Shown here: in pieces, positions 18,869-58,697 of the stretch
How the letters are laid out: every line of letters begins with the position of its first letter
Numbering within the stretch: position 1 is the stretch's first letter
Source of the DNA: Yuukianura sp. NJ FZ-2021
Taxonomy: Eukaryota
Length of the DNA stretch: 64,000 nucleotides
Direction of reading: 5' to 3'
NCBI GenBank assembly: GCA_046563655.1
Contig: CM102287.1
Span: forward strand, 6,572,001-6,636,000
Notes under the pieces: generated by a model
Seen by the model: only the letters and a program-made list of their open reading frames with translations
Told to the model about the DNA's origin: nothing
Databases searched by the model: none
Program-made: the position numbers and the translations under genes

Positions 18869-20796
18869 TTATAATGCAATGGCTAGTCGCAAAGTTGCGT
18901 AGGCAATGATACCAAGTGTAGCAAATGTCGTTGTGCGCCTAAATACTGAGGACAGGCCCATGTCCACTTGAAGCGGGCGACATGACCTCAGGAAGTATTT
19001 CGTATAAAGGCGACCGGTACCCTCTTCCCGCCAGAACCTAACATAGGCCATTGAACTCCGCGTAACATGTGCAGCCAATGGAAAGGTGTAAATCACTCCG
19101 ATGATGGACACGGCGGAAAAGAAAGTAAATAGCAGGAAGTAGAAGATATGGATACTATGATGGAAGCGAATGATCAGTACGTTGCCTAACACAGTCGTGG
19201 TCAACATGAAGGTCAAGCTCATAGGAACTATTCTCCGGCCGAAGAGGCAGTTGAACTCCAAGTTCAGCAATTGGAGTGATCGGTAGATCCGGAAAGATCG
19301 TTCCTCCATGAAAATTCGCCTGAGTCTCCCGCCAGTAGCGTCTTTTCTAAAAAGTCATTGCAAATGGAAGTATTTTAGACTTTGGTTTTGGTTCAAGTCA
19401 TTGAATCACTTACCTGATTCCTTGAATCCATTTTGAGTTGAAGTATAAATACAAAGTTAGAATAATTCCATGGAAGACAAATGCCATAAAAGGTACACTC
19501 AGAATTGCTGCTTCAAAGAGAAACATCAACAACAGTTCAAATACACCACTGTCCAGTTGGTCACTGCTCAGCAGCACTGAAAAAACAGACCTGGAGGATC
19601 TTCTGGATAACACATTTATGAGGAGTATAATTGTCAACATTCCATAACAACCAATCACAGTCACTTTTAGCAACAAGGTCACATTCAAGGTAGGATGCTT
19701 TCGAAGTGTGGTCGAGATCGACTTGACAGGCCATTCTGCGGAAAAAATTAACTGTTAATCTTTATTAAGCCGCGAAAGTAGTTCGCTACTTGATGTTTTT
19801 GTCCGTCCGTCCGTCTGCCTGTGTACTAGTCACAATAACTCTGCAACCGCTGGACCTATTTTCAATCTGTCACACAGATCACTTCTCACAGATCGATACC
19901 TCATGGTCTGGAGTTGATCAAGTGGTTTGCAAGCGGTGGAATTGGGCAACTTCTGGGTCAAAGGTCAAAGTCAAGTACATTTTTGACAAAAATAAAAAAA
20001 ATCACATCTACAAAAGTTCAACTCATCGAAACAATTTACTTTCGTAGCCTTGACCTTTGACTTACAGTTTCGTAGTTATACACGTCACAAGCTTCAAAAC
20101 GGGGTCGCTCATGCTACGCCCGTCTATAACTCTGGAACCACTGGACCGATTTTTAATCTGTCTTCCATATGTAACTTTGCATGGTAAGGAGATGCCCAGT
20201 TCCCATCCGATTGAACCGGAAATGCACAACCGGGTCTGAGCGTACTCCAATTTTCTTCCGCTACTTTAGATACACAGCGTTTACGGCGGTTTAAGTTCAA
20301 GTTGTACTTGTACACACAAATACAGCACTCCATTTAGATTTAAAATTTTGATGTTTCAAAGAAAAATTATTTTTTTACAGATTTCAACTGAAAACATGTT
20401 GAAGTTTCTCGTTTGCTTACTTTGATATCTCGTTTGAAAGTGAATGAGCCGATTCAGAAATGCAGAAATGGAGTCTCTTGAATTAACAAAATGGATGTAG
20501 TAGAACAGACATACTGTGTAACCACTAACCCACAAGTAGTCCAGCACACGTTTTTCAAATTCGGGTTGGTGAATTGAAATTTGGAAAAATCTGATAATTT
20601 GAAAACTAATTACACCCACATTGCTGAGTCCAATAATATAAAACAATAACATTCGAGAGTCTAGCTGATTCAAGGTCGCAAAGTAGCCATCTTTCTTTGG
20701 AATGTACAGTACGTTCACCAAAACAAATTTTGAAAAAACGTTTAAAACAACTCTCAAATCATTAGACGCTGAAGTTGGAAGAGCTGAGCTAGCCAT
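18869..20796 (-). CDS. Gustatory-receptor-like multi-pass membrane protein (~391 aa). Exons 20796-20421, 19735-19414, 19346-18869
   Basis: Three GT-AG exons join in frame (1176 nt) and give about 7 hydrophobic segments. The C-terminus FLRSCRPLQVDMG...TTTFATLGIIAYATLRLAIAL resembles the TM7 region of the arthropod GR/OR superfamily; this family call is an inference. Confidence 0.7.
19762..20297 (+). mobile_element. DINE-1/HINE-like element, copy 2, in intron 1 of the GR-like gene
   Basis: 5' hairpin AAGTAG-TTCG-CTACTT (19776-19791), (GTCC)n at 19801, GGGTCAAAGGTCAA and CTACAAAAGTT blocks shared with the other copies, and a 3' inverted copy CTACTTT (20261-20267). Confidence 0.62.
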
Positions 20797-23466: not shown

Positions 23467-26400
23467 TTAGTACTTTGCGTAGATACCGATTTCTGCTTCA
23501 ACAGCTTCTTTGAAAATATCGGACTTGGCTGTAAACGTATTTTCTTGGTTAAAAAAATTCTGCTCCAATTCGTTCATTTTTTCTTGAATTTCGCCTTCTT
23601 TACGAATTTGATTATACAAGCCTTCATGAATTCTATACAGCTCGTGCTTTCCTGTTGCTGCTTTTGACTCTGTAAATTTCGTGCTGGCAATCGACGTTAA
23701 AGAACCAAATACAAATGGCTTGAAAATAGAATATCCCGAGTTCGCAGTTCCTGTAAACCAGTGTACGCACAATCCAGAGTTTCTCAAAACCGAAACTTGA
23801 CTCGACGTCGTCGCGAATCCACCTAAAAAATACCAGCATTATGATCACGTTAATATTTCATGATCAACTTGTATTAAATAGTACTACTGCTCTTCGTCAC
23901 CTCCGTAACCACCCATGTTGATCTCCTTATTGCGAAGAATATTCATCATTCTTTTGGCATCCAGTTTTTGATCAGCGGAATTTTGCCGCAGAAGCTCACG
24001 TCCTTGACGAAATCTAAAAAATTAAAATGATTCGAATGCATCAAACAGTATTGGTATTTGCAAATCCACAATCTCACCTTCCACAAGACTCTCCATAGCC
24101 GAAGATGCTAGCAAAATTAAATTCCGTGGACGGATTCCATCCAAAGTGCAACTCCGCCTCTGACTTCAAGCTGGGACTCATCAGATCTACTTGAGATCCA
24201 ATTGTTAGCCCATTGGAAATGTTCCGATAGCCTTCTTGTATGCGTTCAGCTGCCCAGTACTTCCCAACTGTTTCGAGGATCCACGCCTCATTAGGATCAG
24301 CAATGAGGAAACTGTTGTGGTACGTCAAATCTTTCGTATTCGAGCACGGGCCTCCTTGGCCATGCACGTCAAGTAGAGTCGTTATTACGTCCAGTGCTTC
24401 TCGAGCAGATCGTCCACGTTCTAGTCCTAATCGAACCAAATCCATTCCAAGAAGTTTCTTCTCTTCTTCCGGCTCCACTTTACCCCAAACGGCTTCATTC
24501 CCAATACACACGCCGGAGCTGTTTGATCCCATTTCCGCCCCCCACATCCAGTTCGGTTTACTCAAAATTACTGCAAGTGTTTCTGGAACCTGAAAATTTG
24601 AAACATTAGGTTAAGCCCCGGTTACAGGACAGCCTGGCAAAAAAAAGGTCCTGGCAAAACAAAATAGTTTTGACTAGCCAAAACACACGCTAGCAAAACG
24701 GTATGCAAAACTGAGAATGCTACCTCGCTTTGCCAGGGCCTTTGCTATGCGGTTTACATGACTTTGCCATCATATGATTTTGGTTGGCAGACTGAGATTG
24801 CCGGAACTCTAAATTTAAAAAAATAATTGGTTAGTTCCATTTTTGATTGTTTAATCAGCTATTGAATTATAAGTACTCGTAATTGTTTAATTCATCTAAC
24901 CTAACTAATAAACCAATTATCATGAGTGACAACAGTGACGACGAGAGCTTAATACTCCTGACTGCTGCGACAATTTTGTTAAAGAAAAGGGGACGATCAG
25001 TAAGAAGAACTAGGGTAAACCCGTATCTACGAGATCGGCCAACCAAGGGAAGATATTTCACGGATGTAAGATGTTTTTAAAGATAAAAATATGAAAAATT
25101 CTTCTAAATTTTAATTCTTCTAAATCTAAAACTCTTCTAATTTTCTAACCTGTAACAGTTTGAAGATATGCGAGCAGTTGAACATACTTTCAAGGAGAAT
25201 TTTCATATGAGTCCTGTACAATTTGATGATTTACTTGAATTGCTAACTCCACGACTAACTCCGAAGAAATTATCAAGACCGGATAGTATATCAGCGAGGG
25301 AGAAATTAGCAATTACTCTCGAGTAAGTAATTGGGTCGTATTATCTAACCTATCCAAATCCAAATTAATCTAAAGTTTGTGAACAACCCGTTTTCTGTAT
25401 CTACTAGATTCCTTGCTTCCGGAACTTTTCAAAGGCATATTGCTTCTTGCTATCGTGTGAGCAAGGCGACCGTCCGGGGCATTATTGAGTCTACATGTCA
25501 GCATATCTACGAGATTTTGTCTCAGCAGTTTCCTAACGTTGCAACAAATAATGGAAATGGGTTAACATACCGTAAATGCTCTAATGCAAGCGCGTATTCT
25601 AATATAAGCGCATACTCTAATGCAAGCGCGGTTTCAGCGGGGGCAAATTGCGATATAAGCGCGGTAGATAACATGAGTTTAAAGCAGAGCCTAGAGCAAA
25701 GTGACATCATCTGTTTAACTTCTATGTTGCTAATTTGACTCAAATCAAAATGTAGCACTTAAATACAAGTTTTAAAAATGGTGTAAGTAAAAGACGATCG
25801 TTTGATCTCAGTTTTAAGTTAAAAGTGGTTCAGTACGCTTCTACTAATACCACGGATGGTACCGCAGCTCACTTCGGAATAAACCGAAAACAAGTCTTCA
25901 GTTGGCTGAAGCAAAAGGATAAAATCGGTAAAAATTAAACTAATTTTAGCTTTCGACTCGATAAAACAACTTTCTAAAAAAGCAGACAAAATGGTTTACG
26001 ATTGGATTTTAAATCAGCGCACCAACCAGCAAAGTGTCTCCTTCAAATCTATTCGTGTGAAAGCTAGGGAATTCTACTCTGCAGTGCTTCAAACAAACGA
26101 ATTTCAGGCCAGCAGTGGTTGGGTACAAAAATTTATGAAGCGCCATGACCTCAGTTTGAGAAAGAAAACGTCGTTGGCTCAAAACGGTCCACATTCGTTA
26201 TTTGAGAAGTTTGTTGAGTTCGTCATGTACACTTCCAACCTCGCTGTTACGAATAAAATTTCCAACCCAACTATTATTGCCATGACTGGAATATTTTTTG
26301 ACATGCCAAGTATTACTACAGTGGGCACAGTTGGAGGAGGCTTGAAGAAAGCAACAGTGACACCAGCGACGAATGGGATAACTATTAATTGAATTTTGGC

Positions 26401-29400
26401 TCACTTAAAACTTATTAATTATTCCGGTAATAAATAGTGTTCTAATAGAGGCGCGTCCGAAAGGTCGAAAATTCTTATAAGCGGCGCGCTTATATTAGAG
26501 CATTTACGGTAACACTGGATGCTAATTCTCAACTTTTATATAGGTTAGCTCAGAACGAGAGTGGATACGTCATTCAAATGAATTCAATTCACTGTGGCAG
26601 TTCCCAAACTGTTTAGGAGCTATAGATGGAAAACATTGTGCCATCAAATGCCCGCAGAATGCTGGGTCGCTCTTCTATAATTATAAGGTTACAAGCATCT
26701 TAACATTGAATACAACCAAAATAACCTATATAACCTATGACACATTATCCAACTTAAGTATGCAATATTTACAGGGGTTTCATAGCATTGTACTAATGGC
26801 CGTAGCCGATGCTCGTTCCCGTTTCACCTTCTTTGATGTCGGTGCTTATGGGAGTGAAGGCGACTCTGCGGTTTTTGCTTCTTCTGTTTTTGGAAAATCG
26901 TTAGCTTCGGGAAAACTAAATCTGCCATCGGACCAGAAAGTCTACGGGAAACTCACGCCGTTCGCTTTCCTCGGCGATGATGCATTTCCCCTTCATAAAA
27001 ACATACTGAAGCCGTTCAAGCCAGCTAAAAACAAGCCTACATTGGATATTCCGGAACGAATATTTAATTACAGGTTATACAAACCTAATTCTTGAATGCG
27101 CTTGTTTATCGAATAGGTTAGTAACTGCAGTACCTGATCTAACCTATTTTTTATATAGACTCAGCAGAGCTAGGCGGTGTGTGGAAAATGCATTCGGTGT
27201 GATGTGCTCGAGATGGCAATGTCTGGCCCGAACAATGTTTCTCAACCCAGAAAAAGCTCAAAAAGTTATAGCCGCCTGCTGCCTCCTGCATAATTGGTTG
27301 ATGCAAGACAGAGAAACGTATTGTCCCCCTGGCTTTATGGACACATACGATGACGATGGAAATCTTGTACCCGGCAGCTTTCGGCAAATCCTTCCAACCG
27401 ACTCCTTATTCCACGCTTCGGTTTCTCAGTCGAGTGGGTCCGGTGGAAGGCCGCCTGCAGACCCTCTAAAGCAACGTGACCACCTGAAAGCCTTCTTTAA
27501 TTCGTCCGAGGGCAAAGTGGAATGGCAAAACCAATCAATTTTTGTGGGATGAATTTAACATTCTGAATTTATTCGTACTTTTAGTAGGTTAGGTGCTATT
27601 CTGGTAGGTTAGGTAATGAATGAGTACAGTTGGCTTGTCTAATAAAGAAAAGCTAACCTATGTGCTAACCTGTGTGCTACTGCTGTCTATTCTTGATAAA
27701 AAACTGTCGTTCCCTCATACTCTTTCAATGTGCTGTGTGTGGCAGTGAGGATCTGCATGTTTAGGTCCTCGACAACATTCTCAGGAAGTTTTTTCCACAT
27801 TCGATCTAGGTTAGCAAACATTGAGTAGTACTTGAGTGACGAAGGCGCTGTCTGTGTGTCATCTGACGTTTTCACAGTTTGAAGTTGATGCCTCTTAAGT
27901 TCCACAAAATTTGACAAGGATTCGGCCAACTTCTCTGACGTGTCCGCTTTGCGTTTGCGAGATGCCTGATGAAAGTTACAGATCACTTTAGTCATCTAAC
28001 CTATATAATACTAGAACGCTATATGCTTACTTACAAAAGCGTAAACTGGAGTAGAAGTAGAATCGGTTTTACGAGCCGGAGCGTTCTGCTGTGTGGATGG
28101 TCCAGGCTCAGATGGAGAGGCCAAAGTTTGTACAGAATTTTGGGAACATTCCTGCTCTACGTCGACTAGGCCAATTTCGTCAGGAGTGTTTGGAGGAGAA
28201 TATTCAGTATCGACAGAATCAAGTGTCCTATTAGTACAGACGAGATATTTAACATGATTAGTACACATTACAGCATTTGGTCGATAGGTTAGGTTCAGGT
28301 AGGTTAGGCTAACCTTCGGGCTGGTTTAGATTCGAGTAGGAACTTCATTTCCTCCCATAACTCCCAGTCTGTGTTCGACTCGATTGAGGTAGCCTCGTCG
28401 TTGTCATTCGTTCCATCTTCCAGTTCAGCCGGTTCACCGGATTTACCCTTCTTCTTCTTGTTTGACTTATTCCGATATCGTAGGCATTGACGCATAGACC
28501 TCCAGGCGCGCTTGCAGTCAGACTCTGCATAATAAAAAATTAGGTTATTATTAGAAAAAAGAAAGCAATCGGAAATAAATAAGCCAAACGAGGTTTCGGT
28601 ACGTATATGCACTCGGATTGTAATAAATAACTACTAACCTATGCTGCATGTGGTCAGACTACAGTTATGATTTTATTTTAATACTTACCCGATTCGGATA
28701 ATGTCCTTGCCACTGATTCCCAGGCAGCTGTTTGAGCTAAATTATTCTGATGATCACCGCTAGTGAGGTCCCATAAGCAGGGAAATGACCTGACTTGTCT
28801 TGCTAGGTCTCTTTTCTTGTCAGTGTCAAACGATTTCAGTGAACCTGTTTCTTTTTTCCCCATATTAATTGGTTAGGACCACTGCACGGGAATAATGGAA
28901 GAATAGTAATTGACAAACTTCTAAGACTATTCTAATTTCTACTATATCGTAGTTCTATCCAATCAACAAAAATAATAGTTTAATTATTGGGTCAATTTTA
29001 AAATTTACAAATTTCGCGGGCAGATTTTGCTTTGCCTAGCCAAAAATAATGTCCGGGTAGTTTCTCGATTTTGCTAGCAAAAAGAAGTGTTTTTTTGCGT
29101 AGGCAAAGGTTTTGGCTAGCAAAAGCGTGTAAGGTGTAAACTGCGTGGCAAAATCTCAAACACGCGCATGGCAAAATGACCGATTTTGCTAGCATGCGTG
29201 TATTGCCTAGGCAAAACTCTGTCCTGTAAACCGGGCTTTAGAAAAAAATCAGATGATTTTTATTTAAGGTTTCAAAAGTTTTGATGAGGACAGAAGGACA
29301 TTTCGATATTATAAACTAGCTTCGCGCGTGGGCTTTATCCGAGGAAAACATAGGCATGGAGTAAAATACGCCAATGAAAATGATGTACGAAAAAATCCGC

Positions 29401-41074: not shown

Positions 41075-44000
41075 TTAATTGCGGTAACCAGACGTGTCAT
41101 TTTTGATCGCTTGGAGATCTGAATAGGGCGGAAGAAGCCCTCCATTCCCAGTTGCCAAACGTATTGCTCGAATTCGATTCGGAAGCATTCGGGAACTCGT
41201 TCGAGAGGAATCACGAACCGCAGAGGCAACGCCTGATGCCAAATCAAGGACTCCGACGGCCGGCTTCGTCACAGCACCAACAATTCCTTTTCCTAGTCCA
41301 GAAACAAGACCCTGGAACAAAAATATCACTTATTAGTCCAATTGCAAACTCAAAATTTTGTTCCAAATTCAAAATATACCGCAAATCCGTCATTCACGAC
41401 TCCATCATAGGTTTGAGAAAAAACAGACGTCAGTCCTCCAACGACACCAATGGTCAATCCTTTGACTCCTGCCGTTAGCGGTGCCGATGAGCCACTACCA
41501 TCCCAAACCGTACGTCGCAACTCTTCATGTTTGGCGTCCATCGTTAGAGTCCGTGTGAGTCCATCTCCAAGAGATCCAGTGACTTTTGCCGCCGAATTCG
41601 AAATTCCATGTGTAACGTTTCTTACTAGAGCATCCAACGATCCTTCACTGATTAATGACGATACTCCAACGGAGACATCGGTCACAAATCCCACCGGATT
41701 TCCTAAAAAGTCCACCGATCCCAATACAAACAGCGCTTGAGAAGTTAGCTCGCTCCGGTAGTGTTTCAGTACGGAGGCCACAAGAAAATCGAATGTTTCA
41801 AAAGGATGCTGCTTAACGCAATCTGTAAACTCAACCAGCGTATCTTCAAAACGAATCAGCGTAAGACCAAGTCGACTTTTGATTTGAGCCAGTTCAGGAG
41901 TAAGCCTGGATGCCGTAAGCAGACTGAGACGTACAGATTTCAAGTGAATTCTTAGTTGTCCAAAGTAGAAACGCTTCGAAGTGAGAGAAGTAGAGTTAGT
42001 AAGAGCTTTTTGAACGTCAACTGGGACATCGACGTCGTCATTAGTTTCATTAGGTGTTCCAAATCCAAGCCACTGACACATCTTGAGTAGCAATTTCTCT
42101 TCAGCAATGATATTCAACGGTTTCAGGCGAAGTTCCCATTGTTTATAAAGATATGCATTCAATTTTGTTTTAAGTCGTTTCCACTTCAATGACACAGCAG
42201 GAGCTTCATCTTCAGGTTCCGTTGACTTCTTCATGTAAATTACCACAGTCATCTCCGCGTCCTGAAGCTGATTATCAATTTGAATGTTGTCGACGGAAAT
42301 GTTGACGGTTTCTGCCTCTCTGGTATCTACCATCTGAATGGCGAGGCTTGATAAAAAGACATAGACGAGCTCTTCTCTTGGATTACAGTTGATGACACTC
42401 AATCCCAAGCCTCGCTGCAAATCTAAATTAAGTACCATCTTTGGTATGACATTGATTGAGTTCTCTTGATAAGTGTGGTTCAGAAAACTGAACGGTGGCT
42501 TCTCCGTGTCAATGATTCGGAGCACACGCGTAGGTCCGTCAGTGTCAACATAAACAGAAATTCTACCAGATCCAGGTCGCAACTTTTGCTTTACAATTGT
42601 CTGTTCAACTGGAATTCCACACTTTGTTCGAGTGAAGCACACAGGTTGGTCTGGGCCTAATACTGCTTCACTCCCTACAACAAATACACAACCTCAAGAA
42701 CGACTGGGCAGGTAAGGTTTAGAACTTATAATCAACTTGTCCAAATATATTCTTACACATTTGCCAAGTTGCAACAGAAACATCTTCTTCAGGGGTGCAT
42801 TTACTTCTATCCAGAAGGCCAAACCCATCCATAGCCTGGACATAAACATTGAGCAAGTTTTTGCACTTGAGACGGCCGTCGACCGTGAATTCCCAATGTT
42901 GTGTTAAACTTCGTCTTTTGTCTGGTTTTCTAAGCATCAGAGGAACGCATTGCGTAGGTTGTGTTGCTTGTCCTGCAATGTCTAGAACCAGTGAGGACAA
43001 TGGAATCCGTTTTCTAGGATCACGAGGTGGACTTGACCCTTCATGCTCAATCATTCCGTCAGCATTTACTCGCCAAAGCTGGTTCCTGATTTATATATAA
43101 ATGTTAAATAATAATATGTCCAGTAACGAGATTTTTTGTTAGTTGAGAAGTACCTGTTTCCAGCTTCCTTCTTCCTTAGCACAACCTTGCTGCCTTCTGG
43201 AACATCCAGGACCAACTGAAGCGTTTCCATACCAGAACCTCCTAATCCTCCACATTCGCTTCCTGGAAAGGTGGCTCTGAGTGCAATGTAGAAAAAGTTT
43301 TCATACGTCATGTGAGCGACCAGACCAAGCGACGAATTATCCATTTTGACAATGACGGAAGTTCCTCCAGGGGCTGCCAATGTCAGGTTTGAAGGAAGAG
43401 TTGGTTCATCCCAAGCATACGGCACTGACGACTCTCCCTTCACTGTCAACTTCAACCGCTCCTCACCAACATTGGTCTAAAATATAGCCAGTTTTTATTA
43501 GATTTACGAAAGTACGATCAAATTAACTCTTGAAATAAAATGTACCTGGTGAACTATGATCGGAACCAGTGAGAAATTATCAATTCGAAATGGTGGAGGT
43601 AGATCTGTTGTATCACTGAACACCACAAAATACGTGGGACCTTCCACGACAGTCTCCACTCGTATAAAGTAGTATCCACCCTCAAAATCTCTAAGAATCC
43701 ACATATAATTTAACTGTTTGCATTGTCAAATATTACAAGCTGATTGAGTTGCTGTTGCTAAAGTTGTTACCTGACGTTGAGATGAAAAGATGACACATTT
43801 TCAATAGGGAATCCACCGGACCAAGTTCCACCAGGGAAGTCTAGAAGTCGGACACACAGCAGTTCATCTTTGTCCAGCCTTGGCCAATGGAATGGAAGTG
43901 TACAAGCTGGGGGTAGTGTCAGATACGTCCCTTCGGCTGCTGGATCATGAAAACTCGTTGCAAAATTCCTTTGAGAGATTTGCATTCTCCAAGACGATCG

Positions 44001-47000
44001 ATTTTCAATAATGAAGCGAGGCGCAATTGTAACAATTTTGGAATCTCTGTATCTTCCTTTTCCATCAGTCACTTCAATACCAGTCAAGTAAACTACTTCG
44101 GGTTGAGAATTAGGCAATCCCACGATCAGTTTCCGTACACGCGTTCCATTCTGCAGTGGATAAGGGCGACACCAATGTGGTTTGGCTGGAGCAGGATGCA
44201 GTCCAGTGCCAACTCTCATAGTCACGTTTGTACCCCCTTCTGGATCAGCAAAACTAAACAGGAGAGGTACTATCATTCGTGCGTGCTAAATATGAAAATA
44301 AAAGTTTAAATATTAAATTAAAACAATACAAATCATTGAAAAATATACACAAAATTACCTCGTTTTCCTGAAATTGTCCTGCTGCCTCAGCTGTTACCCC
44401 CTCTTGCTTAATCATCAAAGGCAGTCCACTTTTGTTGACCATCCAATATTGACAGGAGACTCGAATAATAATTGTTCCGCCTTCTTCACGACTCACTTTT
44501 GCAATCAAATACAGTGCTCGCTTTTGCGTATCCAGCAGTTTTAGCCTCGTCAGAAAAGATGATGAATTTGCATTCACTACTACAGAGGTCCCAGTTGGGA
44601 AATTTTCCGTGCTGAAGGTAACTTCCAGTGGCTCTGTTGTGTCCAACTACGAAGAAAATATAGACATAAAAATATAAACAGAAAACGAAAATTTTGGTTT
44701 AAAGGAGATCATACCTGTGTTACAGGGAATTCCTTTCCAGCAGCAATATGCCCGCTCAAAGATTGTTTTCCGTTTTCTTTGATTTCAAAAGCCACCTCGA
44801 ATGGTAATAGATTGACAAGCATCAGGGGGCTGAGTATGCTAATTAAGTTTGCTCGTTTCGCTAGACCAATTGCGACGTTGTTGCACATCAGCGACCTGTT
44901 GTAATTCGTAGGTTCGTTGATATTTGTCGGGAATTCATCTCTTTTTACTGCTACACAGAATCGGTATGGTTGAATCTGTGAATTAATTTGTGACGTGCAA
45001 GTCCGAAGGCCTTCAGAATCTTTCCCAAGTGGTAGAGGTTTGGAGCAATATGAATAAATAGTTTCACGTTGCTCAGTGCCAACGATTGGACGAATCCAAA
45101 TCTGAGAGCAGACGGAATGTAGAGGAATGGGACATGTTTGAAGAGGTGGAACGTAGATGCAGTAAGAACTGCCTCCAGTTTGAATCATCTCGACTAATAA
45201 AGAAAAGAAACAAACGTATCATGTGAACAACAGCATTCTAAATTAAAAAAATGTGCAAATCTCTTCATTCAAAAACTTACATGCTGGATAGATTATAGTA
45301 TTTTCCAATTTCAGTTCCATCGTATGTAATAATGTATTCTTCACCATCAGCGCTGACCGAATTCGTACTAACTTCTGAGCAGATCCTTGGAGTGATACGT
45401 CAAAAACGAGTCGTGTCGTAGGCAGGTTGGCCATTTCCTAGTCAAATATTTGCAACAGTTATGATTAAGTTATTCCGCCACTAAAACAGAAATTTTGAAC
45501 TTACCGTTCCATAGTGGGAGGGAATGTTCGATATCGGTATGATTTCCCTGAAATAAGTGCCCACACGATCGACTGACACAGGATAACAATCCAACCATCC
45601 GTTCACACGTACAATTAACTGGTGCATCTTCAGTTGATGTGTATTTCGGTGCCTCAATTTCCCCCTTCCCTCAAAAATGAATGTTTGTGTTGCTCCATTG
45701 TCAACTTGAATCCAACTTGTTCCATCAGCATGTGCTGTGCCTTCCCTCGGCTGCTTCAAAATGTCTTCCTGACAGGAAATGACTGTACAAAACCAGAGTA
45801 CAGATCCTGTTTCATTCTTGAGAATGAATGGCACAAATGGAGACCTTCGCTTGACTTGGTGTCCATACTCGGAAGACCACTTTGAGGAAACAGTTTTGTA
45901 CAAACTGAGAAGCGTTGATGTGACGTTAATATTCATCACTTGATGAGACGATAAAGAAATTTCCAGCTCAGGAGCCTTTGTTGGAAATTCGCTTGATGGG
46001 GTCTGTCTTCCTAGTTGCCCGCGCTCATTTCTCTGGACATTTACAAAACATTTCCATGCTTCCAGGAGTGGTTCCCAGCCGCCAAGGTCACGATTGTAAT
46101 AATCAGCTGTGATGGTTGCTTCTGCTTTGGCCGAACGCTTGGTACAGTCTTGATGTACTTCCAATCCAGATAGGTTTAGCTCAGTCAGTGGCACATCAAC
46201 GTCCTTACAGTCGTCTATTATACAAATAGAAACATTTGTGCACTTGACTTCAATCCCACAAATAGCACTACTCTCGGCCTCTTCATTTTTCAAATTTTCA
46301 GTCTGTTGCTTCTTTTCGTTGTAGTTCTCCGTATCAGTTGTCTGCTCTATTCTCTCCTCAAATTCACGAACTTCTTCCATAAAGTCATTCGTTGGGGAAA
46401 TAAGTAGAAATGCTGCGTCTTCCACTCTTCCATGACAATGTGACAAGGCCACAACGCAAGACGCATGCGGGAAACCCATTGATAGCAAATGTTGAACGGA
46501 ATCCTCATTGGCATGATACCTTCGACTGCCAAACTGGAACGCAAATGTGCAAAAATGTAATATGGAAATGTACTCAACACATATTTCAAGGAATATAGCT
46601 TGTATTTTCGATGTTATTTTTTTCGTATTACCCGCCTATGCGTGGTATTCCCAAAATCTGCATTGACAGTTGTTGCAACTGCTAGTTGAGACGGTCGTTT
46701 CTTGAGCTGGACTTGAGCATCTTTAGAAAACCGTTCCAGGAGTTGGAGGAACATTTTCATATCATAGTAAGACAGACGAAGTGAAATTTGTGAACTTTGG
46801 ATTCTAACTATGCTTTCCGTAGACGATGGAGGCAGAGTGGCATCCATAATTCCTGGCGGCACGTCTTTCGTTTTCCTTACAACTTCAATACAGACGTTCG
46901 TTGGATCAAGAATTGAAAGGGCCGTTCCCGTTTCAATGCCGAGAACGCATGAAAAAAGTTCTGATTCCATAATGTTGCAAGAGATTGGGCGTTCCAAATA

Positions 47001-50000
47001 TGGTCTCCATGTCAAGGTGGCTGTCATCTACAAATGGATTTTGCATATATTATAGAGCACAGAAGTATAATGTTAACTTCCTTGCTTAACGACATGCCTA
47101 GTTCAGTTACAAAATTCCAGATTTCTTAATAAATCTTTACTAATTAATTACCTTTAGAATGACTGCGTTTGTATCCCACGCGGATGTATCTTCCACAACG
47201 ACGAGTTCACAGTCGCAGATATTCAATTTGAAGTCAAAGGTTTTCTGTGGCACGTTAAGGACAGCGGCTCGTTTAGTCACAATACCAGCCGAAATTGTTA
47301 CTGGTTGCATAACCTCTTGCGGTTGGTAATGTCGCGGAGAAATGCTGCCATATCGTTTGTCATTCCCAAACTGCGTGTCGTTCCAGGAAGGTACTTCGTC
47401 GGCAACTGCTACTTGGAGCGGTGATGGTTCTGGAATATTTTGACTGAGAAATGCTTGTACCTCAATCCACCAATCTAGAATGAGCATTAGACGCATGCTG
47501 TTTAGCAGAATTGTGACATTTGATCCTCGTTTTGTTTCTCGAAGGTGAACTTCGGCTCGGAGTTTTAACTTGCTTTGATGATGAGAAGAAGATTGATCGT
47601 CCGGTTGATGTTGTGCTCCACCCTAGAATTGTAGGATTCGTTTTATACATTTCATAACTTTATCGACATACCCAATACCAAACCATAATCTTACCTTTCG
47701 CTTCGCTTCCAAAATTGAACTCTGTTGCAAAATATTTTTAAAAACATTACGTCTGTTGGATTCTCCTTCTCCGGTAGTAGTAGTTGCTTCCGGGAATACT
47801 CGGATATCCGATATCATAATTTCTTGAGAAGCCAAGTCAATATCTCGCGTTCCGTCGGAATAGTTTTGGAATGTAAACTTGGATCTCGTAAAATCCACTT
47901 TACAGAGCTTGTGATTCCCTGCTTTCAGAACTTCTACTGTTACGTTTAGCAAGTCCAACTCAATTAGCAACTCTACTCGAGCTACGGAGTTGGCAGCTTG
48001 AATCGAATGTCTTGTGATCATGGACGATGACAGTTTACTGGAATGCAGCCGATGGTGGTGGTAATATGATGCAGGCTGCATTGCTCTAGGAGGAAATTGC
48101 TCTCCAATATTGTACTGCAAAAGTCCACAAATCAACTAAAAAAATACAAATAAAAAAAATCACTTTGCCTCCGCATCATTCCATTGTCAATACTTTCCCA
48201 TAGTTCCAGGTCATAAGAGCTAAACCAAAAAGAGCTACTGCATATATTACTGTACTCACCTTGTATTTCTCCAGATTAACAGTGGCATGTACCGCAGATA
48301 GCGTTCCTTGGATACTCATTGACGCTTGCGTTGGATTCGTTTGGGAACGTCTGTTTAGTAACCGCTTAATTTTGAGGTTCAATGCACATTTGTTCCTTAG
48401 TAGTGATGACCAAGGCGTTGTTTTCGAGATTGTATGTCGCCCATCAAAAACCCATGACTTCCGGTCTCCGTCTTCTGGAACTTGCATCTCTTTGTACTTA
48501 TCTGCATCTCGTAATTCAGCAGAGTAAAGGTCCATTTCGACTAGCTCAACGGAAATATAGTCAAATACTTTCGAGGCATCACGATCTTTCAGAAACTTGT
48601 TCCTTACTGACAGGTGACCCAGGTCAGCTACCAATAAGGATGAAGTTGTTGAACTGTACGGAAGAAATATAACTGGGGCACCAGCCTGGATATTCAGAAC
48701 TACACGGGCAATATCTTCATCTGGCCCATGACAAGATCCGGTGTCAGTTTCACTTCCTCCGAATCCGGTGCTTCCGAACAGTAATGTTATGAGGGCATGA
48801 AATTCAGTGTAAAAGCGATGCGTGTGAATATAAAGTACGGAGGCCATTTCCAATCGAAACTTGGCTTCATTTTCTGTTCGGCAAAAAAAAAACACCAATT
48901 AACCGATAATCATTCACGATACGATATGGTAAACTGCTTCGATTTAAAAATACCTCGTCTGCAATAATCAAAATTGAGCGCTTGTCTTCCTTGAAAACTA
49001 AATTTGATAGGATACTTCCCAGCATATGGAGTTTTGTCTTTAATCGTCAACGATCCCATATGTCCATCTATTCCATGAAAATAGTTCCCTTGATTCACAA
49101 TGCGACACATCACGTCCGTTACTTCAGCCTCCGCCAGCGTTCCACCAAAGTCCGCAAGTTTTACTCGTAGCGCCTTCACATTTATTTCAACTTCAGAATT
49201 CGTCTCCAAGTCTTCTTTACGATCCGGAAGAGGAGAACTGATGCTGTGTCGTTTTGACATGCCTTCGCCATGACCTCCGTCTCGTCTCAACGGCGAGTGT
49301 CTTTCACTTTCGCTTTCAAAATCAGCATGAGAAAAGGCTTCACTGAAAAACTTTCTCAGGCAAATGAACGTGTCCGGAGTGAGAACTAAATCCAAGGTGT
49401 TGAACTCCACATTAGTTGTTTTATGTACCCCTTTGTATTTTGTCAGAAAGAGTGGCGATTTCCTGTCGACCAGAGTGATTTGAATTGTAACCAAATTGTC
49501 CGCAAGGTCCACCGGTCTTGGGGATGGTGGCGGGGTGGCAGGACATGAATCGGACGGAGTAGAAGGACTGCGATACTCTCTGACTGACTGTCGCCTTCTA
49601 CTCTGGGGCCTGACTCGACTCCTTGATAGACGTAATTTAGAACTTGCGCGAAGATTTTTTGAATTTCCATGCTGATGAAACCTTTCACTGAAAATGTCAT
49701 TTGGATCTAAATGGTCTGGCAAGGAAGACGTCTCCGTACGTGCACATGAAGATTGAAATGCCAAAGAAAATCCAGGAATGTTTATGGGGCTCGAACTGAT
49801 CAAATCTGGACATGATTCGGATATGTTCGGATTTCTGTGGAAGACGGAGCTCAACAACGAACTTGAAGTCAGGAACGATGTGTTTTGAGCTTCAGAAGAT
49901 TGTGACATGGCCAGGAGGCGATACTGGGATTCCTTCGGAACGCTAGTATCTTCAAGTATTAAAGATTTAAGAGACACCTTCATTTCGGTTACGAGTCCAG

Positions 50001-53000
50001 TTTTCTCACATTCAAAAGATAAGTCAGAGCATGAGAGGCTCAAGTGCGGGATTTCGTCTTTCCCAACTTTCAGTTCTTCTTGAAGCACCAGCTCCACAAC
50101 GACGTTAGGAATTTCAAACGTAGCTGAAATTGAAATGGAATCGTCATCTGATTTTGTGGGAACTTCATCATTTTGTCTCGAAGGTAAATATGAACGAAGT
50201 ATTGTATAGAGAGTATGGATTTTCGCCTTATTGAAATGGAAATTCAGTTCCGGTAATGTCGCCATCACTGTTAGTGTAGGCCATTCAGGATCTTCAGTGT
50301 AAACAACCCGTCGCCCCAGCTAAAAAGATTCAAAACGCCGAGTCATGATTTAAATAAGGTCACAAATCTTATAAATAGTATTCCGACAGTGTGATTACCT
50401 GCAAGTTGATGGAGAAACGATCAACCACATGAAGAAATGAAGTGCATTGAGAGTTTGCAATTCTCCAGCTTTCATCTTTAGGTGACTTCTTGTCTACAAC
50501 AGTGATTTGAATGTCAGTAATCTCGAGTTTATATTTCTTATAAAGTTGAGTTTGGAGTTGATCCAAGGACTCTGTGAATGCAATGCCAGCAATGTTCTGA
50601 GGGGCTTCAAATATCGAAGGTCGTGATGAACATGAGTCGCCATCTGATGTCATTCGTTCTGGAACAGGCGACGAGCAAGGTGTCAGAAATTCTTCATTTT
50701 CGTCATCGTCGATTTCTTGACCTGACAATAAATCAGAACAAGCAGACACATGACAGTCCTCCTCCTCATGTTCATGGTCAGTGTCATTTGTGAATCGAAA
50801 ACGGCCGAGATCGAACACAATGAACTTAGGAACTACTCCGTTGATGTCCGTTCCGTTTCCGCTAACTCTTCGAAAGCACTTCGGTCTCGTATTATTGTCG
50901 ATATTTTTCGTCGTTGGAAGTAACCCGATACCATGGATGACAATTTGTGGAGCGGCAATATCAAGCGTAATTTCCCAATTAGAATGATGGCCTCCAGTTA
51001 TGGAATTTGTGTTTGTGCTGATCAGTCGTTTCCAGTAGGTGCGTAACTCTTCTTTTGTCTTTTCCTTCATAATTTCGTAACGATTTTGAGAAACTTCCAA
51101 ATAATCTGAAACAAAATGTTTCAATTTAAAGATAAAAAATTTACAATTACATCAATTATACGTTCAATAACAATTTTACCTTCTTCAACGTCGGAAAATT
51201 CGAAGAATGAAGACACTTCATTCCATAAACCAGGATAAATGACTAGATCCAATGGTTTCGTTGTTATGCTAATTCGATGTCCAGCTTTTCGGTGTGGACG
51301 TCTTTCATAGACAAGCTTGAAAATTTGGTCATTTGAAAAACTGGGTTTGCGTTGATCTTGACGTTTTCCTCCTGCCACAGTGGTAGGAAATGTTGAATGA
51401 GGTGAAACAATGAGAGATTTGGTAGAACAGTCGCGAAGTGACAAGGCAGCTAAAGACATATTGAATTTGTGAGCACCGGTTCTCGGACGAACTTCTGTAG
51501 AGATATTGACATCACAGAAATCCATCTCCAAGAATTGCTTAGTTTGTCGATGTAGAGTAATAACAGCCTTTTTGAGCACAAATTTGAATCTTGCAAGAAC
51601 TGCATCTCGTCCGTAGGATTTCATGTCATCCAGTATCGACTCATCCAGTTCTGATTCACTCTTTCGAAGTTGAATAATCTCATTCTCAAACTCTTCACTA
51701 TTGGCATCTATTGGTGCAGTTTCTGACGATGCTGTTGTAGTATTTGCAGAGTAAACCCAATTTGACCACGATGGAAAAATGTAAGAAAAGGCTCGACCGT
51801 ATGATGTTGACGATTCAACGGTGGCATTTGGATCCGTTGTTGACGGTTCCTCTTTGTGCGAAAGAGCAGCACTTTCTTTCAAAATCTTTTCCTTGTCCAG
51901 AGTGATGTTACTTTTAACCTCTACTCGTCGCATAGCAACTTGTCTGAGAGCAACGATTTCGTCAAAATGGAGCTCAGCTTCCATTCGATCTGAAAAACCA
52001 GAGTTATTTTAGAAACAGTGAATGACTTCCATACATCATTCTAAAGTGACACTGATCTGGATCAGCTGTTTTTTTTACCTTTGAGCTTCCGTTCTTCAGG
52101 CAGTAGCATCTCTTGCTTCAAGTACTTCTCATACGCTGCTACAAATGCAACATTTTCAGTAGCACGCGTTGCCATTTCTTCATAAGTTTTCAGCACTGTT
52201 CTGCGTTTATAACCTCGATGAGCCAAGATTGCCCGAACTGCGTATGTCCACCAGAGAAACGGAGCCTCCTTGACAGATTCTACAAAAGGTCGATAGTGCC
52301 GAAAACGACAATTCCGATAAAGACGGGAGTAGGACTTGTAGGATCTGAAAGCTGTTCGAAACTGAGCTTCGGAAAGTTGAAATGGAACTGTGTTCAATGA
52401 TAGTTGAACATCAAATCTAGGTTTTGTGGAACTGGAAATAGGATATGCAGAATTATTTTTGGAAATTCTTGCTTCAGCGGAGACAGGACGTAGAAGATAT
52501 TCGTGAGTTCTGGAAGTTGTGTCCATCGCACTCTGAAAAACGATCGAAACAGTGAGGGGTGCATTGTAACATAAACAAATTATATTTTGATAAAGCTACA
52601 ATAATATAATTGGCTCACTATTAAATCAACTGGACTGAGATCGCTGAATTTCTTAGCTGTAGTATCACAGTAGATTCCAAATTCAGTTAGCTGTAGAGTT
52701 TTGAAAGAACAGTCTGAGTTATTTCCGGTTGAAGATGTGGAAAGAGGAGTCCAAGCTGCGTCGCAACTTTGAGCAATCAAACTTTTTAAAGTAATTCCAA
52801 CGGCGACAACGAAGTTTGACTTGACGTCTTCAAACCTGATATGAACATTACGTACATTGAGTTGCAGGTTCTCGACAACTTTGGTAACTATTGAAGCTCC
52901 GATCTGCATCGATGAAAAGTAGAGCGAAGAATAATACGAGGAAGCATTTGAAGCCAAATCGAATTGTGTCTTCCATCTTCCTTCATGAGAATCCAAAGCA

Positions 53001-53529
53001 CTCATCTTTATCTCATGAGCCAACGCTGCTTCCTGGACAGGATCCCACTGCAAGTATTCCGCAATTTACAACTAAACTTTCCGACAGATTTAGAAAGAGT
53101 GTAAATGTGCCCTACCTACCTCAGCCAAGTTGAGTGGAACTGCAACCAGGTAGACATTCTCGATAGTGATAAGAACCGGCTCATTACGGAAGTATTTCAG
53201 AAGATTGAATTCAATTTTAATCCTTCCAACAATTCCTGACGTAACTTCAATTGGCAATCCCCAACTTCTGAAAATGTTTTTCTTTAGTGGTACGTTCTCC
53301 AGTTCCAATTCACCTTTTAAACAGAACACGAATCAAACCAAATATTTACCAAATAAGACGCAAATACTGTCAAGTTCACACAATTACACATCCCAGCTGA
53401 TTTTCGAAGTTAGTAATTAATTAAGAACATACCTTGTCGCAGGGCAAACGACAGTTGTTGTGAATTGAGATTCTCTACATATTTGCCCAAGTAGTTGTTG
53501 ATATACCAGGATATAAACGTTTCCCACAT
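41075..53529 (-). CDS. VPS13D: Vacuolar protein sorting 13D-like lipid transfer protein, ~21 exons
   Basis: Chorein-N start MWETFISWYINNYLGKYVENLN...GELELENVPLK, a UBA-like segment LLSMGFPHASCVVAL, DYYNRDLGGWEPLLE, VAB/SHR-BD repeats, a ricin-like segment (IEHEGSSPP), QKLRPGSG, LGSVDFLGNP and ATG2_C-like GLGKGIVGAVTKP. All junctions I traced are GT-AG. Confidence 0.93.
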
Positions 53530-55010: not shown

Positions 55011-55325
55011 TACCGCACAGTTCCCTATTACGACAGAATTATAGCCAAAAATTCTTAAAGCTATCTATCATATTTTATTTTTCTAGGTTAAGCAGAAGAT
55101 CTGAATTTCGTGACACACTGACAGTGAATACTTATTGCTTTCTTTTAGTGTGAACCAGCAACTTATGCACAGACACAACTAAAGTCAGACAAATAGTACT
55201 AATTTTGCAAAATTTTTGCGGTGTACGTTCATATCACAATGGTATATGCGCCGAACGTATTCGGACGGTTGAACACTTTTCGTTTGACGGGAAATCAAAA
55301 TATTGCAAAACATCTTCATATTCAA

Positions 55326-58149
55326 ATGGACCAATGGCGTTTGAGAAGATCGCCAGTTTTTGCAACTCATGGAGCTGTAGCGTCTAGCCAGATAAGTACC
55401 CTGTTTTCTCACCTAATAAGACGCTCTCGCGTATAAGACGCACCCCGAAATTTTCGAAAAATCCTGAATAGCGCCAAAATGTTAAGCTTAAAGTTAAAAA
55501 TTTACTTTTTTGACCAGGCTTCCTAAATAGGTGATGAAGTTAATTTCTACAAATTTAACGTTTAAGTTTTAGACAAAAGAATATGAGAAAAAAGTCAGTA
55601 AAAATGCATTCACAGTAGAATTCCAAAACGAAGGTGTATAGAAAATTTCGTCATTCCGAAATTCTGATCTAATGAAATGTCGGTTCACACTAGCGTTAGG
55701 TTCAACCAAATGTTGTCAAACTCACAGCATTTAGAATTTTGTTTTCGACTCCTCTTTTCCTCGACTTGAAGTATTTTGCTGCAAAAAAAGTTTCTAATAA
55801 AAAGTAAAATTCCCACAAAACTTCATTTAGGTATGCACAAAAATACGTCCCAATTCGAATTGCCTGAACCAGAATATTGCGAAAATGCTCGATTTGATAA
55901 ATTAAAATTAGTTTGAAAACAAGCAAATAGAGTTTAGCCGACAATTCCTACAGACTTTTAACAAAAATCGTCAGTTTTTCAGCGAAAGAAGTTTTTTTTT
56001 CTTCCCAGATTTTGCGAAATTTCACAGATAAGACGCGTCCTTTCTGCGAGAAAATAGGTAGTCAGTTTTCTTTTCGGTGTACTGAGGATAACTATTTAAT
56101 TTAGCTTTGTTGTTTAAATTCTTGCTCAATTTACCCTCTGGCGAGTGAAATTGGTGTTTCGATTCTGAGAAAAGGAGGAAATGCTGCTGATGCGGCAGTC
56201 GGAATCGCGGCGGCCCTGAATGTGACTCAACCAATGTCAACAGGTGAAAGCCAAATACATGGTTCATACAATTTAAGTTAAAATTATTAAAATTTTCATA
56301 GGTATTGGAGGCGATATGTTTTGTTTATTTTTCGATAGCAAGTCCAAGAAAGTGAAAGGTCTCAACGGAAGGTAAGCGTAAACTGTTTTGGTGCGTTCAA
56401 GTTTGTTTTAAAAAAATTGAACTATTTTCTGCTTCACTTTGGAAGTTTTTTTCTCCAAATTTTAGTGGTCGCTGTCCAGCGGGCTTGTCCATAAATTTTT
56501 TAGAAAGTTTGGGATTTAGCGAAGCAAATCGGCCACCGAAACAGTCGCCGCTTTGGATCACAGTTCCCGGGTATAAATATTAAGATTTTTTGAAGAAATT
56601 TTGTCATTGTACGATTTAATTTTTCTTCACGTTTGTTTCCATAACTCGCTACAGTGCTGCTGCTGGTTGGATTGACACGGTGGAAACATTTGGAAGTGGA
56701 AAGCTAACACTGCAGGACATCTTGGATCCAGCGATTACGTTAGCTGAAAATGGCCACCCTGTCAATATGTGTTCAGCGTATTTCTGGAAAAGAGCAGAAC
56801 CTATGCTGCTGGAAGCATCGAAACACGGACATGAACTTCTTATTGACGGCAAGGCTCCAACTGCAGGCCAAATCAAGCCAATGCCCAACTTAGCCAACTG
56901 CTTTCGACTACTGGCGTCGGAAGGCAAAGCGGGATTTTATAAAGGGCAAGTAGCAGAAGCCATTGTGCAAACAGTTAGAGAATTGGGCGGAGTAATCACT
57001 AAAGAGGATCTGGAAGCACATTCAAGTACATTTGTAGAACCAATTTCTACAAACTATCGCGGCACTGAAATATTCGAATGTCCACCGAATGGACAGGGAA
57101 TCACTGCTCTGGTGGCTTTGAATATTCTGGAGGGATTTGATATCCCTGCTCTTGCGTTTCATTCGCCTGAACACGTTCATCTTGTCATCGAATCCCTCCG
57201 ATTAGCGTTTGCCGATACTCGTCACTATGTTGCAGATCCTGACTTTTTAAAAGTTCCTACACAAGAACTTTTATCGAAACAATATGCCGCTAAACGCCGA
57301 GACTTGATTTCACTGGATAAGGCAGCAATTGGAATTGTAAGTTGAAAATCTTTTTCTTTTTTCGAGCTTTCTGGAAAGTGTTAGCATTTTTTTTAGAAAC
57401 ACGGGTACCCTGAACGCTGTTCCAATACAGTGTACTTTTGTGTTGTCGACGGAGAGGGGAATGCTTGCAGTTTCATCAATTCTAATTACATGGGCTTCGG
57501 AACTCACATTGTTCCAAAAGGTTGTGGATTTACGCTACAAAATCGTGGAGACAATTTTTCATTGGACAAAACTCACCCCAACTGCTTGCAGCCAGGAAAA
57601 AGACCGTGAGATTTAACATTGATTTACTTTTAAAATTTATTGATAATTTTAAATTTATTAACAAAAAAAAATTTATAACAGGTACCACACAATTATACCA
57701 GGAATGGCCATGAAGGATGGAGAATTGGCATTTGCATTTGGCGTCATGGGTGGATTCATGCAAGCGCAGGGTCACGTCCAAGTTGTGTCCAACATGGTTG
57801 ACTTCAACCTGAATCCTCAACAGAGTACAAAAGCTACCTCTGAAAATTATATTGTTATGATTGGGTCAATTAATTGCAAAATTGTGTTATCCCAGCTCTG
57901 GATGCTCCAAGGTTTCGGATAGCCGACGGAACAGCTAATGGAATTATCGAGATTGAAGAAGGAATAAGCAGCGACGTTGGTAAGAAGCTTAGAGAAATGG
58001 GCCACGCTGTCACTAGGGAATGCACGATTAGTGGATATGAAAGAGCTGAAGAATTCGGTGTAGGGCAAATCATAACAAGGAATCCGACGACGGGCGTTTT
58101 ATGTGCTGGAAGCGATCCTCGACATGATGGACAAGCAATTGGTTTTTGA
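55326..58149 (+). CDS. Gamma-glutamyltranspeptidase / glutathione hydrolase, YwrD-like (~545 aa). Exons 55326-55391, 56135-56243, 56302-56371, 56466-56570, 56655-57336, 57397-57605, 57682-57824, 57896-58149
   Basis: RRSPVF...SSQPLAS...GGNAADAA...STGIGGDMF, TVPGAAAGW, PPNGQG, the autocatalytic Thr site [29 protein letters not shown] and GSDPRHDG. The spliced CDS is 1638 nt in frame if intron 1 is AT-AC. Confidence 0.93.
55392..56134 (+). other. Non-canonical AT-AC intron (GGT intron 1)
   Basis: CAG|ATAAGT...CAATTTAC|CCT CTG restores the conserved SSQ-PLAS junction exactly. Confidence 0.8.
55399..56058. mobile_element. Degenerate pogo-type MITE inside GGT intron 1
   Basis: TA on both flanks, imperfect TIRs CCCTGTTTTCTCACC..AAGACGC / CCTATTTTCTCGCAG..GGACGC, and subterminal ATAAGACGC repeats (three copies). 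Confidence 0.68.
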
Positions 58150-58697
58150 ATTGACTGAATATTAAATTCTAAAGTGGACATTGGGGTTTTACAACTTGAC
58201 TTTTGAGTGTAAAAATAAAACTTGTGCTTTTTTGCGTCTTCGATTTTCGAGGCTGAATTTTTTCGAGGCTGACAATCGACGCATGGATTTACGCTAGATC
58301 CTCAGCGTGTTTGGGAGTCAAAGTGGAGGAAATTAAATTGTTGTGGCTTGGTTAATTAATTTTTAATTAACGTTGAATTGTTTCTCCGCTATTCTAGCAT
58401 ATTCGATGCTCCAACGGTTCAGATTGCCCTCGGGACAGCCAATATGAACCTCATAGAAATGACCGAAAGAATAAGCAGCGAGTCGCTTCCAGTGACGCTA
58501 TGAAGAATGCTCCGACTGATGGTTTCCCAGTCAACCAAAATGCAACTGAAATTCTAATTTGAATCAACATTTTAGTAAATAAGACACAAAAGTCATGTCA
58601 TCTTATGATATTTACATATCTCGATTCCATGTCGTCGCTGGAGACTGAATTTTCTGAAATTCACAATTGCCCGAGTACTGACGACATTGATTTCAAA

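Follow-up and report, generated by a model that had tools for sequence, protein, structure and literature searches.

The DNA analyzed here is a 64-kilobase (64-kb) window from Yuukianura sp. NJ FZ-2021 (64,000 nucleotides [nt]; positions 6,572,001 to 6,636,000 of the forward strand of contig CM102287.1, assembly GCA_046563655.1), and positions are counted from its first nucleotide. The plus strand contains, from position 55326 to position 58149, a gene of eight exons with an intact reading frame encoding a gamma-glutamyltransferase of 545 residues. Intron 1 of this gene (55392 to 56134, plus strand) is 743 nt long, lies in phase 0, starts with ATAAGTAC and ends with AATTTAC and, hence, has AT and AC as its terminal dinucleotides. 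The other six introns are all of the GT-AG type and are 58 to 94 nt in length. The features described below indicate that intron 1 of this intact YwrD-type gamma-glutamyltransferase gene is probably a U2-type (type II) AT-AC intron (AT-AC II), which would be spliced at 55391|56135 by the major spliceosome.

Gene structure and homologues

The coding part of exon 1 (55326 to 55391) runs from an ATG to a CAG codon. It is followed on the plus strand by exon 2 (56135 to 56243) and, according to the gene model, by exons 3 (56302 to 56371), 4 (56466 to 56570), 5 (56655 to 57336), 6 (57397 to 57605), 7 (57682 to 57824), and 8 (57896 to 58149, stop codon included). Matches to Pfam family PF01019 were detected on exon 2 (E = 1.9e-7) and on exons 5, 6, and 8 in a search to which exons 3, 4, and 7 were not submitted. 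The predicted protein belongs to the gamma-glutamyltranspeptidase family, as it combines these PF01019 matches with the SQPLA and GGNAxDA motifs. A homology search with this protein detected 5091 proteins with E values of ≤0.001 among 8000 scored, the best 120 of which were listed. Among these listed matches, the best named relatives carried the name "glutathione hydrolase-like YwrD proenzyme" or a similar one, and named relatives included proteins of the springtails Allacma (59% identity) and Folsomia (58%) and of sciarid flies (57%). The designation YwrD is thus the NCBI name of the best named matches, a database label rather than a test result, and catalytic activity and autoprocessing are predicted properties of the protein.

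Agreement with the homologues extended across the whole model. In an alignment with 98 full-length homologues, all seven junctions were free of insertions and deletions, and the model carried the conserved residue in 213 of the 221 columns that were at least 90% conserved among these proteins. Four open reading frames (ORFs) from metagenome or run assemblies (P0153 to P0156) exhibited 62 to 66% identity to exon 5 and continued into introns whose positions coincide with those of introns 4 and 5, indicating that public data include related animals in which this gene has the same structure. An in-frame ATG is present upstream, at 55239, and the segment from there to 55325 (plus strand) has no stop codon before the ATG at 55326 and would add 29 residues. 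The start at 55326 is the likelier of the two, as the homologues begin at the position of this ATG. About 220 nt past the stop codon, at 58372 to 58482 (plus strand), a relic with weak similarity to the beginning of the last exon of a gamma-glutamyltransferase gene was detected (FDAPTVQIALGTANMNLIEMTERISSE; tblastn E = 0.016), which is probably a decayed partial duplication.

The junction between exons 1 and 2

The position of the first junction was derived from a profile of the N-terminal region built from 103 of the 120 listed homologues. The remaining 17 were left out, as they either did not contain the GGNA(A/V)DA motif or had fewer than 34 residues ahead of it. This profile was run against 3259 six-frame pieces representing the whole window. 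The piece containing exon 2 matched from profile position 21 or 22 to position 58 (E = 6.6e-21), with the proline of its first codon at position 22. The piece containing exon 1 ranked second (E = 0.0026), matched positions 2 to 21, and ended exactly on the final glutamine; the next-best piece had an E value of 2.7. Together the two pieces neither skip nor double a profile position. The residues on both sides of the junction are kept in almost all of the homologues, with Q present in 101, P in 100, L in 99, and A in 102 of the 103 proteins.

The letters at the two ends are TCT AGC CAG (55383 to 55391) followed by ATAAGT (55392 to 55397) and TTTAC (56130 to 56134) followed by CCT CTG GCG AGT from 56135 onwards, as described in an initial annotation of this DNA, which had also claimed that removal of the stretch from ATAAGT to TTAC restores the SQPLA motif. 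To enumerate the possible joins, GT-AG, GC-AG, and AT-AC pairs were formed between donors at 55340 to 55519 and acceptors at 55990 to 56199. Twenty-six joins were in frame and free of stop codons, and only 55391|56135 restored the sequence ...VASSQ|PLASEIG, in agreement with that claim. The mRNA junction must therefore lie at 55391|56135 on the evidence of homology, and an intron with this junction ends in AT and AC; splicing at this place is the predicted consequence. If intron 1 were retained, the reading frame would reach a stop codon after 15 further codons. The motif TAAGT occurs at a frequency of 0.0011 per position in the window (143 occurrences in 128,000 positions of both strands). 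As it is rare and yet directly follows the final codon with a match in the homologue profile, the ATAAGT site is not due to chance.

The transcript could instead start elsewhere, with the exon 1 match being fortuitous or representing a rarely used alternative 5′ exon. Exon 1 is indeed short (22 codons), has no Pfam match, and has only a modest E value in the profile search. It is, however, the sole piece among the 3259 to match the missing profile positions 2 to 21. It also lies upstream on the right strand, opens with an ATG codon, and stops at precisely the profile position that precedes the first one of exon 2, while the open upstream extension of exon 2 contains no ATG and is closed by a TAG at 56102 to 56104. 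A different transcript start is accordingly regarded as very unlikely.

A second possibility is that the AT donor is used with another acceptor, or that a cryptic pair of sites is used, such that the main mRNA differs from the model. The initial annotation had dismissed the pair GT(55396)-AG(56104) as out of frame, which was confirmed, since this pair adds 4 + 30 = 34 nt; an in-frame junction, AT(55392)-AG(56104), was overlooked. This junction and GT(55403)-AG(56145) are both in frame and without stop codons. The upstream AG (56103 to 56104, plus strand) is the first one to follow plausible branch sites, and with the AT donor it would produce a hybrid intron and an in-frame insertion of 10 codons before PLAS; hybrid AT-AG introns are described as probably U2-type in PMC6280755. 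None of the 103 homologues has an insertion between the Q and P residues, the P, L, and A residues being kept in 99 to 102 of them, so that this insertion, too, would disrupt a near-invariant motif; that intronic letters should spell out precisely PLAS by accident would also be remarkable. Furthermore, a combination of A at +1 with G as the last base was defective in the second step of splicing in the rescue experiments cited in PMC1557818. The GT(55403)-AG(56145) join would replace PLAS with ISTL, destroying a near-invariant motif, and its GT is located inside a transposon end in a poor donor context (CT|GTTTTC). An alternative join of either kind as the source of the main mRNA is therefore considered unlikely.

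A metagenome scan for orthologous DNA detected 65 loci, all with ≤50% identity. The one locus of these 65 that was examined, an intron-bearing locus of at most 49% identity, had no intron at the Q|P position.

Splice signals of intron 1 and the transposon within it

The 5′ splice site of intron 1, CAG|ATAAGT (55389 to 55397, plus strand), follows the U1-pairing consensus except for the A at +1 (55392). It matches CAG|GTAAGT at eight of nine positions, the best match among the seven introns of this gene, whereas the six GT-AG donors match at three to seven of nine. The initial annotation had described ATAAGT as GTAAGT with only +1 changed, and this description was borne out. The 20 nt preceding the terminal AC (−22 to −3) include 14 pyrimidines. 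With its AT and AC ends at an independently fixed junction, a donor that is U2-like apart from +1, and neither a U12 donor nor a U12 branch box, intron 1 fits the AT-AC II class, an assignment made here by donor match count (8/9). Sheth et al. (2006) defined the class by this same pattern, their published criterion being a SpliceRack score of at least 75 on a GT-AG weight matrix modified to carry A at +1 (PMC1557818).

Most AT-AC introns are of the U12 type, with 353 such introns compared to 24 of the U2 type in the five species of Table 1 of PMC1557818, and intron 1 could, hence, be a minor-spliceosome intron with degenerate signals. An intron of that type shares the terminal dinucleotides of intron 1 but is expected to have a ATATCCTT donor and a TCCTTRAY branch box approximately 10 to 15 nt from the 3′ end (consensus motifs; an ATATC U12 donor is quoted in PMC6280755). 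The donor of intron 1 matched ATATCCTT at only three of eight positions and has no ATATCC. No TCCTTRAY box with one mismatch or less was detected in the last 50 nt, and the best matches with two mismatches were located either too close to the 3′ end (5 and 9 nt) or too far from it (35 nt). These results agree with the initial annotation, in which both U12 signals were reported as absent. In addition, the nearest named relatives of this gene belong to groups with extreme loss of minor introns (Collembola and Diptera; PMC10639083). A U12-type intron is thus extremely unlikely. An Rfam search of the 64-kb window produced no matches and, hence, no small nuclear RNA (snRNA).

The letters of the intron ends were examined in DNA contigs from public runs. 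The runs found to cover this stretch number five, all of DNA and none of RNA: four come from a single sample, while the fifth belongs to a second study with a different organism label. Contigs of four of the five were aligned to the window (X1, X2, X4, and X5, the last being the run of the second study). The aligned contigs cover introns, indicating that they derive from DNA, and none of them has a 55391|56135 joint. A contig of X1 spanned the donor region (55250 to 55445) without differences, while contigs of X1, X2, and X4 from 56010 and of X5 from 56068 extended over the acceptor, again without differences. The terminal AC was therefore confirmed in two studies and the AT donor in one. The contigs of the second study were ∼2% diverged and contained both the AC and the left junction of a transposon. 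The initial annotation had argued, from the compensatory difference at both ends, that a single sequencing error was unlikely.

This transposon was overlooked in the initial annotation. It is a MITE-like (miniature inverted-repeat transposable element-like) nonautonomous DNA transposon of 660 nt (55399 to 56058; no strand assigned), recognized by its inverted-repeat ends and contig depth, and it makes up 89% of intron 1 (660 of 743 nt). Its ends align as imperfect terminal inverted repeats over ∼110 nt and are flanked by TA at 55397 to 55398 and at 56059 to 56060, an AGT/AGT pair shifted by one base fitting equally well. The contig depth at 55349 to 55547 and at 55943 to 56041 was ∼10-fold that of the flanks, indicating that the element belongs to a high-copy-number family in the genome. 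Many contigs from other copies broke off at 55416, and internally deleted, shorter copies were apparent as joints (for example, 55451 to 56028). The longest stop-free stretch of the element is 81 codons, and no second copy was found in the 64-kb window. As a contig of X5 runs from exon 1 into the element, the insertion is common to the second data set.

Introners and the MITE-derived noncanonical introns of some tunicates are transposon-derived introns. A MITE-like element makes up most of intron 1 too, but it is located inside a preexisting intron. The boundaries of an introner coincide with the ends of the element or of its target site duplication, whereas intron 1 reaches 7 nt to the left and 76 nt to the right of the element, the right side being at single-copy depth. 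The unique 3′ part (56061 to 56134, plus strand; 74 nt) contains a pyrimidine-rich tract and the terminal AC (56133 to 56134) and was covered by contigs of single-copy depth. With these 74 nt present at the depth of a single copy, neither splice site can have come from the element, and intron 1 is accordingly no introner. The possibility that the element carries the donor was also examined. At 55416, the flanks of other copies had AAG or AGT before TACC in some runs, with an agreement of 0.6 to 0.69, but the right end of the copy in intron 1 does not have this feature and the candidate was rejected. The length of 743 nt is due to the insertion of the 660-nt element 5 nt past the donor. Before insertion, the intron would have been ∼81 nt in length (ATAAG plus TA plus 74 nt), similar to the neighboring GT-AG introns, and would have started with ATAAGTAG; positions +1 to +7 were unchanged by the insertion.

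A young pseudogene, in which mutations at the two ends of a former GT-AG intron have abolished its splicing, would also account for the AT and AC ends. The relic of a last exon at 58372 to 58482 (E = 0.016) points to a history of duplication at this locus, and a transposon is located 5 nt from the donor. Against this, the 545-codon frame is open across the eight exons and agrees with 213 of 221 conserved columns. The 40 best-supported variants of the DNA contigs (90 further rows of differences were not among them) comprised 21 noncoding and 19 exonic variants, the latter being 11 synonymous and 8 nonsynonymous; 8 of the 40 were in the 60-nt intron 5 alone. Introns thus vary much more than exons, a pattern that suggests constraint (purifying selection) on the coding sequence. 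A pseudogene would further require two independent changes on exactly the two terminal bases, giving exactly the compensating A...C pair, in an intron whose donor is otherwise a perfect consensus. Moreover, contigs of the second study, which has a different organism label, carry the AC as well as the left junction of the transposon. For these reasons, loss of function at this locus is judged to be improbable.

The initial annotation had also raised the possibility of relaxed splice site rules in this lineage. No support for this proposal was found in the window, the other six introns of the gene being plain GT-AG introns. Another gene of the window, a VPS13D-like gene, occupies 41350 to 53065 (minus strand) as a long chain of ORFs with matches to VPS13_M, UBA, and a Hobbit-like C-terminal domain, its best named match (among 32 matches) being a dragonfly protein with 38% identity. 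It contains many short introns of 68 to 124 nt, apparently of the GT-AG type. When 15 gaps between its long ORFs were scored, 7 had a GT-AG intron of 68 to 124 nt as the top candidate and the other 8 were ambiguous, with a long GT-AG intron or else a GC-AG or AT-AC intron as the top candidate; the score was crude, was applied without a homology control, and has too little power to argue either way. An exact second copy of CAGATAAGTAC was detected at 48494 to 48504 (minus strand), giving two occurrences in the window compared to an expectation of 0.04, but it lies in frame inside a VPS13D-like ORF and was rejected as a coincidence. Other features of the window are an ORF with a DDE_Tnp_4 (Harbinger/PIF-type transposase) domain at 26544 to 27095 (plus strand; E = 4.7e-11), a Peptidase_C69 (secernin-like) exon at 24074 to 24610 (minus strand), and a weak match to the 7tm_7 chemosensory receptor family at 18869 to 19354 (minus strand). 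The last two are consistent with an arthropod-like origin, and the gene content of the window points to an animal, probably an arthropod.

Relation to known AT-AC introns

Introns of the AT-AC II class have been described since 1997 and were surveyed in 2006 (PMC1557818); the class is also named by Frey and Pucker (PMC7072748). The major snRNAs are required for splicing of the human SCN4A and SCN5A introns (Wu and Krainer, 1997, as cited in PMC1557818 and PMC6280755). The 2006 survey reports 15 AT-AC II introns in humans, 10 of them in sodium channel genes, 6 in mouse, 3 in Drosophila melanogaster, and none in Caenorhabditis elegans or Arabidopsis thaliana, corresponding to 0.003 to 0.008% of introns. 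An AT-AC II intron in TAF2 is common to humans and D. melanogaster (PMC1557818). Intron 1 resembles the SCN4A, SCN5A, and TAF2 introns in having AT and AC ends and an otherwise strong U2-type donor with no U12 donor or branch box and, as in other AT-AC II cases, it stands alone among ordinary GT-AG introns. It differs from them in its host, a YwrD-type gamma-glutamyltransferase gene, in carrying a 660-nt transposon that starts 5 nt past the donor, and in being known here from its sequence. We conclude that intron 1 probably adds one more member to an intron class that is rare but already described.

In pre-mRNAs of yeast and humans, a change of the last base from G to C can rescue a change from G to A at +1 (PMC1557818). 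Intron 1 has the same compensating pair in an otherwise normal U2-type intron as these engineered double mutants, which were spliced less efficiently; unlike them, it is a natural intron in a gene that is apparently constrained. Splicing of intron 1 as an AT-AC II intron could proceed as follows. Base pairing of U1 snRNA with CAG|AUAAGU would resemble that with a consensus donor, with only +1 left unpaired, and the major spliceosome would then carry out the first step using a branch site within the unique 3′ segment, where candidate sites can be read. The second step would be permitted because A at +1 and C at the last position form a compensating terminal pair, the sole pair other than G/G known to allow it. 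The resulting CAG|CCT join of exons 1 and 2 would encode the conserved N terminus ...VASSQPLAS.... The original intron would have been ∼81 nt in length, with the MITE-like element being inserted later, 5 nt downstream of the donor.

Several observations weigh against this interpretation. The case for splicing is built from sequence, and the proposed dependence on U1 and U2 from motifs within it; the claim of a major-spliceosome AT-AC intron in the initial annotation is accordingly upheld as regards the signals, the junction, and the intact gene, while splicing itself and the type of spliceosome are predictions. Rescue by the A...C pair is less efficient than splicing with the G...G pair (PMC1557818), and an in-frame AG is present at 56103 to 56104, 30 nt upstream of the AC. 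Confirmation of the AT donor comes from a single sample, possibly the one from which the assembly itself was made, and the X5 contig over 55250 to 55445 contained one unplaced mismatch and one unplaced gap. No database protein is closer than 66% identity. Finally, the variant counts are small (19 exonic variants), are taken from the best-supported rows, and may mix alleles or paralogues.

The class, the mechanism of the A...C terminal pair, and the rarity of these introns have already been described (PMC1557818; PMC6280755), and no new question is opened by this example. Extreme loss of minor introns has been reported for springtails, flies, and mites, with conversion as one route of loss (PMC10639083). 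Intron 1 could be a frozen intermediate of a minor-to-major conversion, in which an ancestral U12-type AT-AC intron, in a lineage that is losing its minor introns, gained a perfect U1-pairing donor and kept its ends. The idea of a converted U12 intron, raised in the initial annotation, has no support here, and we hold this origin to be quite improbable. If it were true, type II introns might exceed in this lineage the share of 0.003 to 0.008% observed in model animals.

For annotation, gene finders limited to GT-AG and GC-AG introns would truncate this gene or produce an incorrect model of its N terminus, with loss of the conserved RRSPV...SSQ segment. If intron 1 is spliced as predicted, it would be a natural U2-type AT-AC intron outside the sodium channel and TAF2 genes, in which nearly all known cases reside, and it would indicate that an AT-AC II intron tolerates a 660-nt transposon located 5 nt from its donor.

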